A stretch of DNA of 64,000 nucleotides from Podarcis pityusensis (Eukaryota). Shown piece after piece: positions 18,186 through 42,800 of the stretch; positions within the stretch are counted from its first letter, which is position 1, and each line of letters starts with the position of its first letter. The notes beneath the pieces are model-generated. The model saw only the letters and a list, made by a program, of their open reading frames with translations. It was not told the DNA's origin and searched no databases. The position numbers and the translations under genes are program-made. Location: NCBI GenBank assembly GCA_964106645.2, contig OZ078259.1; one strand, 5' to 3'.

Positions 18186-19374
18186 ATCTACGTTTTGTAT
18201 GAAGAAGCCGCATTCGCTGCCACCCTGTCTCTCGCCTAAAATGTCTTCCTGCTTGTTTCTAGCAAAGGCCACGACTCACCACTCCTCAAGTGGGTTATTA
18301 GGAAGAATAGCAACGAAAATCTCCAAGACAGTGTTTACCACGCCCCACTTTCTAAGATTGCGCGGCTGCGACTTCAGCTGCGTCTCTTCCTCTTGAGAAG
18401 AAGATGTGGGAAAGAGGCTGTAGACTACAATACAAAGGAGGCTGTCCTCTTCCTCGCGCGCGTGTTTGTGTCTTCAAATGTCAGTTTCCGGCACTTTGTA
18501 AAAAGACCCTGCAGTTCTTCCCCACCCGCCCCAGTCAATCAATACTACTCAACTTAACCATTTTTTGTTTTTTAAAAAAAACACTCTCAAAACTCTCTTA
18601 ATAGTCTTCAGAAGCGCGTGCGTTTCCTTCCTTGCCTATTTCCAATCTTAGTGTGTTTTGAGGATTTCCTGGTTGATTTACCGGTTTCAAAATATTTCTC
18701 CCCATCCAACCAAACGCATACATTTAAAATGGGATGGAAATGGATCTCCTGCGATCCTTCCCAACCACTTCCCCTAGAAGCGTACCATTTATTGCCATTC
18801 ATTTGTTTCTTACTGTTTTCTGAGTCTGTCACTTTTGAAACAAACAAACAAACAAACAAACAAAAACCCTTCCAAAAAAAATAAATCTCAAAGTGGTTTA
18901 ACAGTGTGGGGATTCCATCTCCCTCCCCGTGGCATTTTTGTTTCCATAGAAATAAGAACGAAGACTTTTCATAAAACATTGAAAAGTGTAAGTGACCACC
19001 AATGAATAAAGTTGCAGTCTTAGGCATGCTTACTAGGGTGGAAATCTGCAGGAACTGAGTGGGACTCACTTCCAGCTAATCAGAAATCGAGGAGTAATTA
19101 CAGAAAGATTTCTATTCGGTGAAGAATCATAGAATCTTAGAGTTGGAAGGGCCCCCAAGGGTCATCTAGTCCAACCCCCTGCAATACAGGAATCTCAGCT
19201 AAAGCATCCATGACAAAGAGTTAAAAAGTGAGATTTCCCCCCCTCCTCCAGCTGTGATAGATGGCTGGACAGAAGGAAGGAAAGAAGGACATGTACATTA
19301 TACAGATGCACACATATATATTCAACCATACATACGCACACTTTGGGGGAGGTTGTCAACTTTTCTTGTTCTTA

Positions 19375-31801: not shown

Positions 31802-33634
31802 CAAGATCTGGAAAGCCACAGGTCATCCATCCCTCATCCAGCAGCTTCTTCCTCCTGTTCCTCACCCACAAATAAAAGTTTCACTATGTGTTCAGCCTCT
31901 TAAAACTGTGCAGAGGAGAGTGGCAGGGGGTGTGTGGCATCATATGTGGCAGAGTAGTGGTGGCTGGTGTCCATTGGGACTGGTAGGGCAGAAGATGGGG
32001 AGACAAATAGTAGGTGGAACCAGTGAATGGTAGGCACAGCTGCTCCCTCACTGGTTGTAAGTAAGGAAACAGGGAGGTAGGGTCTGAGAGGAGAGTCTGA
32101 GGTTAGTGGGGCAGTGCACAATTCTCCCTAATGAATCAACCACCAGCTGTAGGATATTTAAATGCAGTCAAACCAACAATTCATGTTTTGCCAGATAGGT
32201 GCATGTAGCTGTTGAGCCTCACAGTGTATTCCTGTAAATTTGCTAGAGAGAACTCTGTGAGAACACTCCCTGTGTGTCCTAAGAGGAAAAGGGCTTAGCT
32301 ATATATCCCTCCTGCCTGCCTGGGCAAACCCTCTTTTTGTTCTTCTTCACCATGCTTGCAACATGACAACATCTGCATGTCTGAGCTCCAAGTTCAGGCT
32401 CCATTTTTAAGCTAAACTTAAATATGTCTTTGCAACTGAATTAGTATTTTAAGCCTGCCTGAACAAAGCTGTGGTATCTGTTATTCTTCAAGAAACATAC
32501 CGAGTGAGTGAACATAATTTTTACCTTTTCTCAAAATTATCTGTGAGTGGTTATTGTTTTAAGGGGGAGAAAAGGAGGGAAGTACCAGGAGAATCCAGAC
32601 TGCCTTAAAGCATCCTGGATTACTTAAACTAAAAGGCTAAAACTAGCCTATATAAGCTTCCATTTTAAGATGCAAAGGGATGGCACTCTGCTAAACTTAC
32701 GGACATGAGGAAGGAAAGTATCTAATAAATATATATTCTAGCATCTAATCACATCCCAACACCAGGGGTGCAAAAAGATGCAAAACTTTTGTACAACGAA
32801 GTGTTGCAATGGCAGAAAGAAGTCTAAAGAAGTGCTTAAAAAATGACAAGGTAGGCTAAGGTAGGTGAAAGGATGGTTGCAATTTGGTTAAGTGCAAACA
32901 AGAAGACCTGGCAAATATAGGAGGATGTCAGTAAAGGAGAAAATAAGCCTTTGACAAAGGACAATGGATGCACAGGTTTAGGCAGAGAGGCAGAGAACTT
33001 TGCTTGCTTCCAACATGAGGATGAGTGGCAAGGGAGATATTAAATGACACCCAGTTCACACTGCAATAGGCAAACAAGAAATTAAAACAGATGTAGACTG
33101 AAAGATCTGTGGGGTTAGCTGAGGTCCAGCTCAATATAATTATAAAAAGGGAAAGGAAGGACTAAACCTTTTGCAAATACATTTAAAACTTAATGTGCAC
33201 ATGAGGTTCCAGTGTTCTGAAAATGAGCAAATGTGACCGTTGTGTCTATGCATGGAAATGAATCTACAAGAGAAGTTCTCAGTAAGACAGTGGGAGCCTA
33301 GGAATCTCTGATGCAATTAACACAGAGGAATCTCAAGGTCCTGGCCAGGTTCCCCAATCCATGAGACATCACTCAAACCACTCCAGTCAACAGCTGTTTT
33401 AATTGATGGGAGGCTGGTAATCTACATGGTAAAAACTTCAGCATGGGGCCAGCATAATCCCACCCATCCATGCCAAAAAACATCTTCAACAGAAACTGTT
33501 CTGTAACAGTGGTAAGCTGAGGAACACCAAGAAGGCTGAGGTAGTCAGGGTGGTAAACCTACGGCCCTCCAGGTTTTATCTCTCAAACTCCCATAAGCCC
33601 CAGCCAGCATATCCAATGGCCAGAATCTCAGGAG

Positions 33635-34419
33635 CTGTTGTTGTAGGCATCCATTTGTCTCAAGAGACAATAGAGTGCACCTCCAGTGGTGAAGTCAAAT
33701 CGTTGTGTTTGCAGCACCAAAGTTACCTCTCTGGGGCACAAGCATGGACATTGTGCATGGAGGGCCTGGGCTCCCCAGAAGACAAAACCTTGGCCTCACG
33801 GAGGAGGTTGACAGGAAAGCAGAGCAATACCTTTGGCACTGACTTGGCTGCAGGAATTCAAGGTGCCATCCAAGCATCTTAAGGACTCCACTTCAAATTT
33901 GTGTAGGGTTTACTTCTTAGACTTTTCTACTCTCTAAGATACCCCACAAGGCTGCAGAGGTTTAGGATCAGAGTTTTCCTCTGCCTGGACGGGCTCCCTT
34001 CCCCATGGTAGGGACCAAAGGTGGACAAACTATCCCAGAAGGAGCACAATGTGCCTCCAGCAGAGGTACTAGCCCTTCCCTAATACCCCATACAACCCAA
34101 TATTACAATGTTAGTGTAAACTGGTATAAATGGCACATGCACAGCACAGTCCTAGACTACACATGGCTGTTGGCAAGTCCCACCTGCCCATCACTTTCAT
34201 CTACAGCATGTGCAGAAACTGCCTTCTTGACCATTGAACCCACCATTGCTCTCATCAGCTCAATCCACCAGAGCCTGCTTTCACATGCGGGGGGCGGGGG
34301 GGGAGTTCCTAACTCACATAAGGTTTGAGATCCATTCACCTGGTTTAGCCAGCCAGCTGAAGTTGTTTCCCAGGGTGTGGCCTCTGTCATATTCTGACAG
34401 CTTCTAGGAACCACAGGTG
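33635..34419 (-). mobile_element. short RTE-related non-autonomous retroelement, interrupted at ~34005-34180 and inserted in a MITE
   Basis: (CAA)n tail; RTE-type 5' motif GGAAAACTCTGATCCTAAACCTC; homologous plus-strand copy at 44296-44835. Confidence 0.65.
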
Positions 34420-36064
34420 TTTCAGTTAAACAATATTTGGGGAGTTACAAGTGTTCATCCCTGACTTAAAACCTCTAGTGCTGCCTGGAAGCTGCTGGTG
34501 CAACAGTCTTCCTAGACCTGCTCCTAGTTTAGCAAACCTCCTGGACAGCTCCCTTATTGCTCAGTACTAGCCCCTGACGGAGCCTGCTGGACAGCTCCCC
34601 TGCCTTGCCCAGAAAGCCATACAGCTAAATTTATGGATTTCTCATTGTGCTTTGGCACTGTCTCCTAGCACACAGTTTTGGAACCTACCAGAAGCCCTCC
34701 TGGTCTTTTGAACTACAACTCCCATCAGCTCCCAGTCAAGGTTGATGGGAGTTGTATACCATAACATCTGAAGGGCACCAGGTTGGGGAAATGCTGTTTT
34801 ATGCCTAGTGCGCCTGAATCTTTACATATACTTTGACTGGTACCCCAGGAAGGAATGCATCGCAGGCTTATTTATTGAGCTAACAAAGTCAGGACAATTT
34901 ATGCAAGGGAGATTTCTTTACATCTTATCACAAATTTTGTTTTCCCCATTTGAGCAGAAGTCCCCAATAGGATAATTTCTCCTCATGATGATAATTTTGT
35001 TACATGCTTTTCATTAATCCAGTTATAACTCCCATAATATTATTTGGCAGCTTATTGAAGCCTTGAGGAACCATGGGGGTTCATATGCGCATTGTCGGGT
35101 TATGTTTTAAAATAATAATATAATAAAATGAGTCCAATTAAAAATTCTTTTAGTACTGTATGATATAAGAAATTCCCCAAAGAAAGAGATGAAGCATCAC
35201 CATTCTGTCCACATCATTGCTTCTCTTTGAGAGACAGTGAGGAATAAATATGCAAATGTTGATATCACATAAAAGTCTATCTATCTGACTACCTTATTTC
35301 CCTGAGATATTTGGCTAGTTGAAGAATTGCGGTGGGGGGGTTTTTTGGGGGGGGTTGATGGGGTAGGACACATTTCTTTATGACTTAGGGGGGAATCTTT
35401 CTGTAGAACAGTTTTAACTCCCTCAAGCTTTTGCAAATATATTCAAATTATCATGGGTGGGAGGAGAGATAATTCACATATCACTGAAGATAAATAACTG
35501 GAAAACTATAATATTTACCCTGACATGTTAGGAAATATGGTGGTGTGTGCTGATTTTGGTTTTTGGGAGGGTGTTATTTGTAGGCTGTGCACAGACCCCC
35601 CTGATCCACCCTCTGATTTGTGACCCCCAAATGGGGCCAGTTCACCCTCTGCCACCCCAGAGACCACCCACCTAATTGTGAATACTTTCCCCAAACAATG
35701 GGGGTAGCTAAGGGGTTTTTTTAAGGGGTTCAAAACATATGGTCAAAATAGAGTTTTTAAAGGGTCTGGGTTTATTGGGATCATACAGGGTCAGATCCTG
35801 TAGGAATGCCACTTACATTCCAACCTGCACCTCAACAGCTGCTGAGTGGAGTCATTGATCCTGCAAGGAAGCAGGAAGGAAGTAGAGTTGCAGTGTTGGG
35901 CCTACCTTCTCCTGGGAAGACACGGCTACCAGTCAGGTAGGTCTCTGCTTTTTTGTGGGGTTTCCCCATCCAGCCTGCCTCTCCTTCCTGCCTGATGCCC
36001 CATCCCTTGATAGCCATAGATTTTTCTGGACAGTCCAACCCAACTCACAACTTACACACCTTTT

Positions 36065-39873: not shown

Positions 39874-42800
39874 TATGGGTTCAGAAAGCAGGCTTCGGAG
39901 CTCTGCAGGACTCTAATTGACTTTAATTGCTGTGCAGGGAAGTGATTTTCCCTTTTCCACTTTTAAACCTATCAATTCACTGAGAACTTATCAGCACTTT
40001 CTTATCTATGTTATAAGAAACACTCTGGGCAAGCACTGTGAGAAGCATCCTGGGCAGGCCGTTAGCTGCTAGCTGTTAATTGCCAGCTCCCTTTTACACT
40101 TTGTTTTTTGACTTCCTGGCAGTCATTACACAGAGAAGCTCTTCGACAGAATAAACTGCACACTTTTTTCCTTTCCTTTCCTGCTAAGGAATCCTCTCTT
40201 TGTTTACTCATCACCGCATTATTATGCCTGCTTGTAAATGCTACAGGGATACAGAAGAGGCAGTCCTTTCACCAGCTCTCAAACAATTAAAAATGGATTT
40301 AATAAATCTGTTTTCAGTTTCAACAACAAAAAAACGGTTTTCTCCTCTTGAAGTTGATTGTGAATGTGAGGAGAATACTTGGAGTGGGGGTGTAGAACTA
40401 GATTCAGCGATGGGGCAAGCTGACTCTGAGCTTCAAATAGAGGAAGAAATAACAAGTAGGGAAAGCACCCAATTAACTTTAATTGCAAGAATGGTTGAAC
40501 ACATCTTCCAACAAATTTGAGGTATCGCCTCCCAAATAACTCATTTATCCCAAGAGGTCCATAGATTATCTGTAAATAATAAGCAGGTACCAATAGACCA
40601 CCAAAGCACCGAAGTGAAATGGCGTCAACAAGAGCAGACCCCTAAGCTTGATGCAGAATGTGTAGAGGTCCTTAAAATTAACTGTTCTCATTTAATCTTT
40701 CAACCAAAAAAGATCTGCATGACAATCTGTCGAAGTTCAGATCAAGCTCCTAACTGGAAAGGCGCCCAGCGTGCCAAACGACATCTATCAGACTTACTTG
40801 GAATTGGACTTACAGAGATCAATCTAATTGGGACTGAATCCCTGAATACCACAAACCAATTCCAAAAAATCATGTTAACTTTTTCCTCTACCAGACTGCC
40901 CTTACTGATCCACAAATTGAAACCCAGATTGTCAAGCAGAGGAGTTTTTCCAACCCGGGTATTTCACAATTCTATTGTCGTGCCCTTATGCAAGATGAGG
41001 ACTAGGGCTACAGAGCGACCCATAAAACCAAAGCCTGGATCTCCAATGGTAGTAATGACATCGCAAACAAACTTGATAAGCCGGGAGGAAACAGACATGT
41101 CCAAGTTGAATCCACAGAATCATGCTCAGCATCAGTATTATCCCTTGGGAAATGATTTCCTCAACTCCTTTAGGAACCTCTCTCAGGAAAAGCAACAAAC
41201 AGTTATCAAGAGGCTTGACCTTATGAGCCAGACATTGAAAGAGAACAAAGAATCAGAGGTAGAGACTGACAACAGACCCAGTGTCCATAACTGTTTGATA
41301 TCTACGGAACCACCGGAGTTCTGGACAAAGATGAGACATTTAGATGAGGAGGAATTAGGAACTACGCTTAAGGAATCTCCGCTGGTGAGTAATTTTCAAA
41401 GTAAAGATCCAGTGAACTCAAATGTGAGCACTTTATGCCCAACGACTGAAATTATTGAACATCTGAATCACACTACTAATATAAATGATACCCTGTTGCC
41501 TCAAAAATTGGCAAACTCTAAAAGCACAATGACCAGCAATTTACTAAGAGGAAATCACTATAAAACAATCAAACTTCTATCATGGAATGTAACAGGGTGG
41601 CTGAACAAGATTCAAGACAGCGATTTCTGTTCCTATTTACAAACACATGATATCATTTTCCTGGAAGAAACCTGGGCAAAAGAAGGTACTATGGTTGAAT
41701 TACAGGGTTTTATAAGTTACACCCAGCCAGCACTTAAAACTGCAAAGTACGGAAGGCCTAGCGGGGGCTGGGGGGGCTGGTGTCAACATCTCTTAATGTA
41801 ACAATTCAACTGTGCCCCTCGCTGACCACCCCTAATTTTTTAGTGTTATCCCTCTCTGATTTCTCTCTGAGAAATACTGTATTTGCGTGTATATTCCTCC
41901 AGTAAAGTCCTGTGGGGAACCCTCCGCTAGGCCTTCCGTGCTTTGCAGTTTTAAGTGCTGGCTGGGTGTAACTTATTGGGAAAGACTTGACCAACTACTC
42001 GAAAGTATAGACTCTTTGTCGCCCAACCCTCGGTTTGTCTTGGGGGGCGACTTCAATGCCCAGATTGGCCTTGTCTCCCCACAAAATACAATATTAGCTG
42101 GACTAAACTTGAAGGACGAACCCGAAATCTGCCAGAGGGCAGCAATGGACACCACCTCTAACTACGCTGGGAAATACCTCTGTGAACTTATAATTAAGTA
42201 CAATCTTTTGTTATGTAATGGGCATGGACAAGGGAATCAGGAGGAGTATTTTGCTTTTATTTCCCCCAGTGGATTTACTAGCACCATAGATTATATACTA
42301 ACATCTAATAATGTTCCAGTTAATCGAGACACCCTTAGGATAATCCCCAGAGATGAAAGTGACCACTTTCCACTTGAGTTATCTCTTGCACCATTTGTTT
42401 CTCCTGCTTTCCCTAAAATATTGGATGAAACGGAATATCTGATACTTGGAAATAAAAGGTTAAAATGGAATGCACAGGTCCAGGAAAAAATGATCCCGAT
42501 CCTGGATTCTCATGAGTTTGCTTTATTAAAGGCGGAAATGTTGTTAGAAACAGGAAATGTAATCGGACTCTATGAGAATATAATTAACCGAATGCGCCCA
42601 CTGATGACCACAACCAGTGTGATCAAAAATAAAAAGTTCAAAAGACAGACATGGTTCGATAAGGAATGTCAGAATAGTAAAAAGTCTATCTAGGGAACTT
42701 AGAAAATTGAAGTTAAAGCACAATAAGCACAATCTTGCTCTACAAGCTGAGGTAGCTCAATTGCGATATAGTTATAAACTATTACTTAAAAGTAAGAAAC

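Follow-up and report, generated by a model that had tools for sequence, protein, structure and literature searches.

Positions 34337–34419 on the minus strand of the window, i.e. the 64,000-nucleotide stretch of Podarcis pityusensis DNA analysed here, are likely to be the decayed core of a self-cleaving ribozyme of HDV-like type at the head of a short, non-autonomous, RTE-derived element; the copy itself is rearranged and probably inactive. The minus-strand letters from 34419 to 34337 are exactly those quoted in the original prediction, which had been made from this DNA alone, and the covariance search proposed there as a check recovers them: a model derived from 51 genomic copies, with the window copy excluded, scored 82 bits at the motif, its sole strong match in the window. 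Read from the letters and the covariance model, the core comprises the following parts:

34337..34419, minus strand: core of an HDV-like fold, decayed copy (P2, P3, L3, P1′, P1.1 GG, P4, J4/2, P2′)
34413..34419, minus strand: P2 5′ strand, including the T at 34413; 7 of the family's 11 pairs are left
34410..34412, minus strand: P3 5′ strand, GGT in the window copy and GGC in the family
34382..34409, minus strand: L3, 28 nt, made up of UCCUAG (equivalents of HDV U20, C21, C22 and G25), AA, the inserted hairpin and G
34383..34401, minus strand: hairpin inserted in L3; the family form has a 6-bp stem and a 7-nt loop
34379..34381, minus strand: P3 3′ strand, GCC
34372..34378, minus strand: P1 3′ strand (P1′), ACACCCT, 7 nt
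34366..34371, minus strand: P1.1 GG and J1.1/4 GAAA
34350..34365, minus strand: P4 hairpin; the family and the distant relatives L128 and L129 have 5 bp, one pair being broken in the window copy
34345..34349, minus strand: J4/2, GCTAA, with the candidate catalytic C at 34348
34337..34344, minus strand: P2 3′ strand; it contains a bulged C and is cut short by a deletion of 9 nt directly after it

The overall architecture is as first proposed, with different registers: P3 is a 3-bp GGT/GCC helix, P1′ extends over 7 nt, and P2 takes in the T at 34413.

On its own the motif is weak, and we take it as real because of the family evidence. A core-only HDV descriptor (P2, P3, UCCnnG, GG and CnRA, with no term for P4 or the L3 hairpin) matched twice in the real window, at the motif and at a site at 18628+, as compared to five matches in 30 shuffled windows (0.17 per window). 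A strict form of the descriptor is passed in full by only 6/51 genomic copies and misses the distant relatives L128 and L130. Rfam scans with E values up to 10 returned no ribozyme family, either in the 32–37 kb region of the window or in L128, L129, L130, L035 and L089.

The repeat family and its 5′ edge

The motif is part of an old repeat of ~750 nt that has no ORF. Searching the 1.5-Gb genome with the window stretch gave 1,350 first-look candidates, 40 of which were scored and 30 fetched, and a 5′-end query of the same genome gave 2,660; neither figure is a copy number. Over long stretches, copies match the ~750-nt consensus at 75–91%, and they terminate in a (CAA)n tail; one of them (L033) is inverted beyond consensus position 187. 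Among the 51 core copies, 256/612 cells deviate in CpG columns, as compared to 216/4,056 at other columns. P4, described as decayed in the original prediction, is intact in the family; its breaks reflect CpG decay of dead copies, and it is therefore this decay that gave the helix its eroded appearance.

Other family copies begin ~107 nt upstream of the motif with GGGGTGT, which pairs 7/7 with P1′ and is followed by AT and then by a second, similar strand. A partner for P1′ at the very 5′ edge of the element, the first thing that the original prediction had suggested looking for, thus exists. Of the copies retrieved with the core alone, 21/29 reach consensus position 12 or earlier. A target-site duplication of at least 11 nt lies beside the tail in 6/28 two-ended copies, its edge being at most 3 nt from the G in all six (within 2 nt of the GGGGTGT start in five, 3 nt inside in one); no clear target-site duplication was found in the other 22/28. 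In 54 copies with the 5′ part, a sample biased toward a start at G1 because about half of it was retrieved with a query beginning there, G occupies position 1 in 26 and position −1 in 6, and the match to the consensus is 61–85% at positions 2–9 and 80–94% at positions 10–25. Overall, 5′ ends differ among copies by up to 8 nt.

Fold and core letters of the family and its distant relatives

The family parses into a P1 of 7 bp, a J1/2 of ~95 nt, a P2 of 11 bp with one bulge, a P3 of 3 bp, an L3 that starts from UCCUAG, a CC/GG P1.1, a GAAA junction, a P4 of 5 bp and J4/2 GCUAA. Across the 51 copies, 93% of the cells in the 11 pairs of P2, a core-enclosing helix of at least 5 bp in HDV-like ribozymes, are paired, P3 reads GGC in 41/51, and the two C-G pairs of P1.1 are formed in 48/51 and 37/51, the second being a CpG site. 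The reverse-wobble letters of L3 are kept as U in 50/51 and G in 49/51 copies, and both recur in L128–L130; the candidate catalytic C of J4/2 is present in 49/51 copies, and the next AA in 50/51 and 51/51. The available text of PMC6326823 lists G1-Y, the P1.1 C-G pairs, U and G of L3 and the C of J4/2 as letters required in HDV-like ribozymes, all of which are found in the family; J4/2 has U at its second place, unlike the CRRA design motif given there. P1 conforms to a helix of 6–7 bp counted from the cleavage site and opening with a purine-pyrimidine pair, with 7/7 pairs from G1 in the family and L128 and 7/7 pairs from an A1-U in L129; in the window copy, the P1 strands do not follow this order. 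In dead copies, such conservation is the state of the source element and not selection; likewise, the absence of covariation among the 51 genomic copies is expected for dead copies and lends no support to the fold.

Distant relatives were sought in metagenome contigs with a pattern that fixed only loop, junction and P3 letters, and three loci matched (L128, L129 and L130). L128 and L129, which come from other organisms, are complete autonomous elements with intact endonuclease-RT frames of 1,109 and 1,102 codons, respectively, and share 55% identity; L130 is degraded and without ORF, and its P2 does not pair. Scored against the covariance model, the three reach 88, 85 and 45 bits. Position 1 is A instead of G in L129. 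Both sides of P1 pair 2 have changed in L128 (G-C to U-A), and the first of the two tandem strands is therefore P1.

The original prediction had also called for covariation in P2, P3 and P4. In an alignment of three copies from this genome with L128, L129 and L130, i.e. with a distant part of three sequences, one degraded, two-sided changes occur in 8/25 nested pairs of the six sequences: three in the L3 hairpin, three in P4 and two in P2. Eight such changes were reached by 2/500 shuffles, a control that ignores relatedness, and slid partners give 1–3. P2 carries a U-A to A-U change in L129, and one of the two P2 changes may be a misalignment. Covariation thus appears among distant relatives in P2 and P4, but not in P3, which is invariant in 6/6 aligned sequences. 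The enlarged L3 that had been ascribed to intact members is indeed a family trait: L3 is 27–28 nt long, hairpin included, in all members seen, outside the 7–8 nt of solved HDV-like ribozymes, and the hairpin is retained with compensatory changes in the distant relatives. Its loop (window 34389–34395; L128:206–212) contains a self-complementary 6-nt word, GCATGC in the family and ACATGT in L128, that is absent in L130; by its sequence, the word may serve for one more pairing or for a kissing contact.

Pseudoknot-free folding of both intact elements recovered a helical J1/2 domain and P2, with folding no better than that of shuffles (z −0.27 and −1.62); the best such fold of L128 competes with the core by pairing P1′/GG to an arm of the L3 hairpin. 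The L128 sequence is present in 20 listed runs from 10 studies, which are labelled as invertebrate or freshwater metagenomes or as coded organisms, and none of the runs listed is an RNA run. Contig depth on L128 in run X2 rises from 980 (bases 61–80) to 50,189 (bases 81–100), with G1 at base 78, although contigs cannot fix the start. Pattern matches on viral contigs (4 + 1) were rejected, as four fail the covariance model and the fifth resembles neither RTE elements nor the family; at the protein level, scanning viral contigs yielded no relative. The corresponding scan of prokaryote genomes returned nine stray contigs, none with the motif; these contigs in prokaryote assemblies (L135–L143) encode relatives of the LINE proteins and are probably host contamination. 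The L128/L129-type loop pattern matched 15 sites in the present genome, 10 of them ordinary family copies and 5 unrelated, with no second family.

The size of L3 bears on the strongest alternative, in which a ribozyme-derived fold is slow or dead through the L3 insertion and has been kept as a 5′ shield, a protein-binding site or a translation element, an internal promoter setting the 5′ end. L3 belongs to the active site, its solved loops being 7–8 nt in the available text of bioRxiv 10.1101/2022.09.22.508989, and HDV-like folds are said to protect 5′ ends and to aid translation in the portions available of PMC13708176 and PMC6765202; the variable 5′ ends would fit as well. Nevertheless, we judge this account unlikely, as the source element and the three distant relatives all retain the C of J4/2, U and G of L3 and the pairs of P1.1, and the element's edge is where P1 starts. 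R2 elements that are cut at their exact end show variable 5′ junctions too, as far as described in PMC3774820 (available text). We thus favour a self-cleaving ribozyme in the source element.

Rearrangement of the window copy

The window copy lies within a MITE, and its pieces follow one another in the order B (consensus 108–358), S (70 nt), A (1–96) and C (361–748):

34420..34463, minus strand: first half of the host MITE, assigned by eye and from the terminal repeat
34169..34419, minus strand: piece B, consensus 108–358
34099..34168, minus strand: piece S, 70 nt from outside the element, matching the L205 5′ flank at 66/70 positions
34004..34098, minus strand: piece A, the element's 5′ end (consensus 1–96), now lying behind the core; it holds the P1 5′ strand and the greater part of J1/2
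34092..34098, minus strand: displaced P1 5′ strand, GGGTTGT, forming 6/7 pairs with P1′
33638..34003, minus strand: piece C, consensus 361–748, with the remaining RTE 5′ UTR, the RTE 3′ end and the (CAA)n tail
33546..33637, minus strand: second half of the host MITE, resuming after the element's tail; BLAST match to other copies

The original prediction had the P1 strand missing and MITE sequence resuming at 34420. The flank is MITE-like, but a P1-type strand is present, 240 nt downstream. Another MITE copy, at 34684–34786 of the window, and one in L089 are weakly matched by the Rfam model mir-5408 (20.7 bits for the window copy, the cut-off being 90); the mir-5408 family may derive from this MITE.

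Piece S has one other genomic occurrence, 60 kb away and inverted, where it forms the 5′ flank of family copy L205 (G000:C20:46350008), which lacks piece B and has a partial target duplication. Piece A is 68/79 identical to L205, within the 77–91% range of 37 other copies, and has four non-CpG departures from the consensus in common with it; piece C is 72/90 identical to L205, like unrelated copies. We infer that a copy truncated at 108 may later have gained S and A from its neighbour L205 during repair. Reverse-transcriptase jumps on one RNA had been considered as the source of the piece order and were dropped, since S is the flank of another copy.

Given the displaced strand, the window copy might still cut as a permuted ribozyme that takes its P1 strand from 240 nt downstream. 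Both displaced strands pair 6/7 with P1′, the core letters are intact, and, according to the available text of PMC5640933, HDV-like ribozymes made of two pieces, the P1 strand being a separate molecule, function in vitro. Set against this are a P1 mismatch, a G-U in P3, the broken P4 pair and the short P2, together with a nested core energy of −9.0 kcal/mol, as compared to −24.6 in L129 and −21.9 in L035, and a competing window fold at −25.5, so that cleavage by this copy is very improbable; the modelled energies suggest that it is probably inactive. Least probable of all, and largely refuted, is a chance reading of repeat sequence, which would be in line with 0.17 core-only matches per shuffled window, unremarkable folding z-scores and no Rfam ribozyme match, but leaves unexplained a P1 partner ~150 nt off and exactly at the 5′ edge, as well as changes on both sides of pairs in four helices, none of them fixed by the search pattern.

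Probable origin from an RTE-type LINE and relation to known ribozymes

Judged by its sequence, the short element is the 5′ UTR plus the 3′ end of an RTE-type LINE, a putative clade name taken from the architecture; the family, which has no ORF, is non-autonomous and probably RTE-related, as had been suspected. A subfamily with 65 extra nt retains the last ORF codons (SHSRRC). LINE fragments that share the element's tail are numerous (2,073 candidates), and the tail follows the ORF end in 19/29 of those fetched. The element's inner sequence continues into the start of an endonuclease frame in 3/7 loci examined, where consensus parts 423–685 (L194), 157–628 (L198) and 420–506 (L200) lie ahead of the frame, and one endonuclease locus retains a decayed ribozyme core (23 bits). 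The partner LINE encodes a single endonuclease-RT frame of ~1,050 aa with a C-terminal Cys/His motif; its RT part is 58% identical to P0001, and its relatives are endonuclease-RT proteins of ~1,050 aa, one of which is named after F52C9.6, the C. elegans RTE-1. An intact full-length autonomous partner was not found in this genome, which holds decayed pieces only. At the junction of the two LINE ends, a crude pairing test gave best duplexes not above those of shuffled UTRs in 5/5 cases (14–55 of 60 shuffles as good); the junction lies inside a predicted hairpin in 4/4 short copies folded.

The genome carries other LINEs as well. A second, younger RTE-type family (L144–L173), with copies up to 99% alike and many of them clustered on contig G000:C19, has a different 5′ end, and the ribozyme model matches 0/30 of its loci. 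Many contigs of G000 carry dozens of ~1,036-codon open frames with a more distant endonuclease, presumably from a recently active BovB-type LINE, and two long frames at 40521–42693 (plus strand) of the window resemble the ORF1 end and the endonuclease of a LINE of another clade.

For the source element, we propose that a double pseudoknot composed of P1 (7 bp), a structured J1/2 (~95 nt), P2 (11 bp), P3 (3 bp), P1.1, P4 (5 bp) and the J4/2 C would cleave host read-through RNA immediately 5′ of the first G. New copies would begin at G1 or a few bases later, as described for R2 elements in the available text of PMC3774820. The freed RNA would be mobilised in trans, i.e. copied by the LINE protein, with reverse transcription from the shared 3′ tail.

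Ribozyme-headed bipartite retroelements are already known, and the part that may be new is the hairpin in L3. Ruminski 2011 reportedly predicts RTE ribozymes. In the available text of PMC5786205 and PMC6765202, RTE elements are reported with HDV-like ribozymes, several of them predicted only; the present family resembles these in its position at an RTE-type 5′ end, five-helix layout, core letters and expected role, and differs in its 28-nt L3 with a covarying hairpin, a form that the examples of Ruminski 2011 may include. With the Drosophila R2 and R2/R1 SIDEs it shares the lack of an ORF and the combination of a ribozyme-bearing 5′ end with a LINE 3′ end; as far as PMC3414825 (available text) describes them, however, those elements have 28S rDNA as their insertion site, come from R2/R1 and have demonstrated cleavage, whereas this family is dispersed and RTE-derived, with a predicted ribozyme. 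The bipartite RTE LINEs WALLSI3 and RTESINE2 likewise join an RTE 5′ UTR to a 3′ end and keep the original 5′ end, but are given no ribozyme structure in the available text of PMC5786205; the present family may already bear a name.

Among individual ribozymes, drz-Agam-2-1 has a structured J1/2 (P1.2) domain, an extended P2 and short linkers, as here, and its structured J1/2 and long P2 are an activating layout; its peripheral insertion is in J1/2 only, with no L3 hairpin described in the available text of PMC4908430, in contrast to this family. A 3-bp P3, a CC-GG P1.1 and the J4/2 C are common to the genomic and antigenomic HDV and CPEB3 ribozymes, and J1.1/4 is as in the genomic HDV form, yet HDV and CPEB3 have an L3 of 7–8 nt and a short J1/2, as compared to 28 nt and ~95 nt here (bioRxiv 10.1101/2022.09.22.508989, available text). 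Fungal HDV-like variants differ in P4 and at P2–P3, not in L3, in the available text of PMC5640933, and that of PMC10879173 has nothing to say on L3. A full-text literature search found no L3 hairpin described, and the figures or supplements of Ruminski 2011, Webb 2009, Webb and Luptak 2011 and Jimenez 2015 may show one.

More tentatively, and leaning slightly against it ourselves, we consider that the family may belong to an active, undescribed HDV-like subclass with a helix in the catalytic L3, heading RTE elements from invertebrates to reptiles and invisible to Rfam, in which the hairpin serves a distinct purpose, e.g. core docking or RNA–RNA pairing via its loop. If so, the HDV fold would tolerate a whole helix in its most constrained loop, and the search space for such ribozymes in vertebrate genomes would widen. 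RTE UTRs serve as gene-writing templates (PMC13708176, available text), a use to which a 5′ end that cuts itself would be relevant should the motif occur in these UTRs. A ribozyme of this kind would, finally, explain the defined 5′ end of promoterless RTE elements and of their two-ended parasites.
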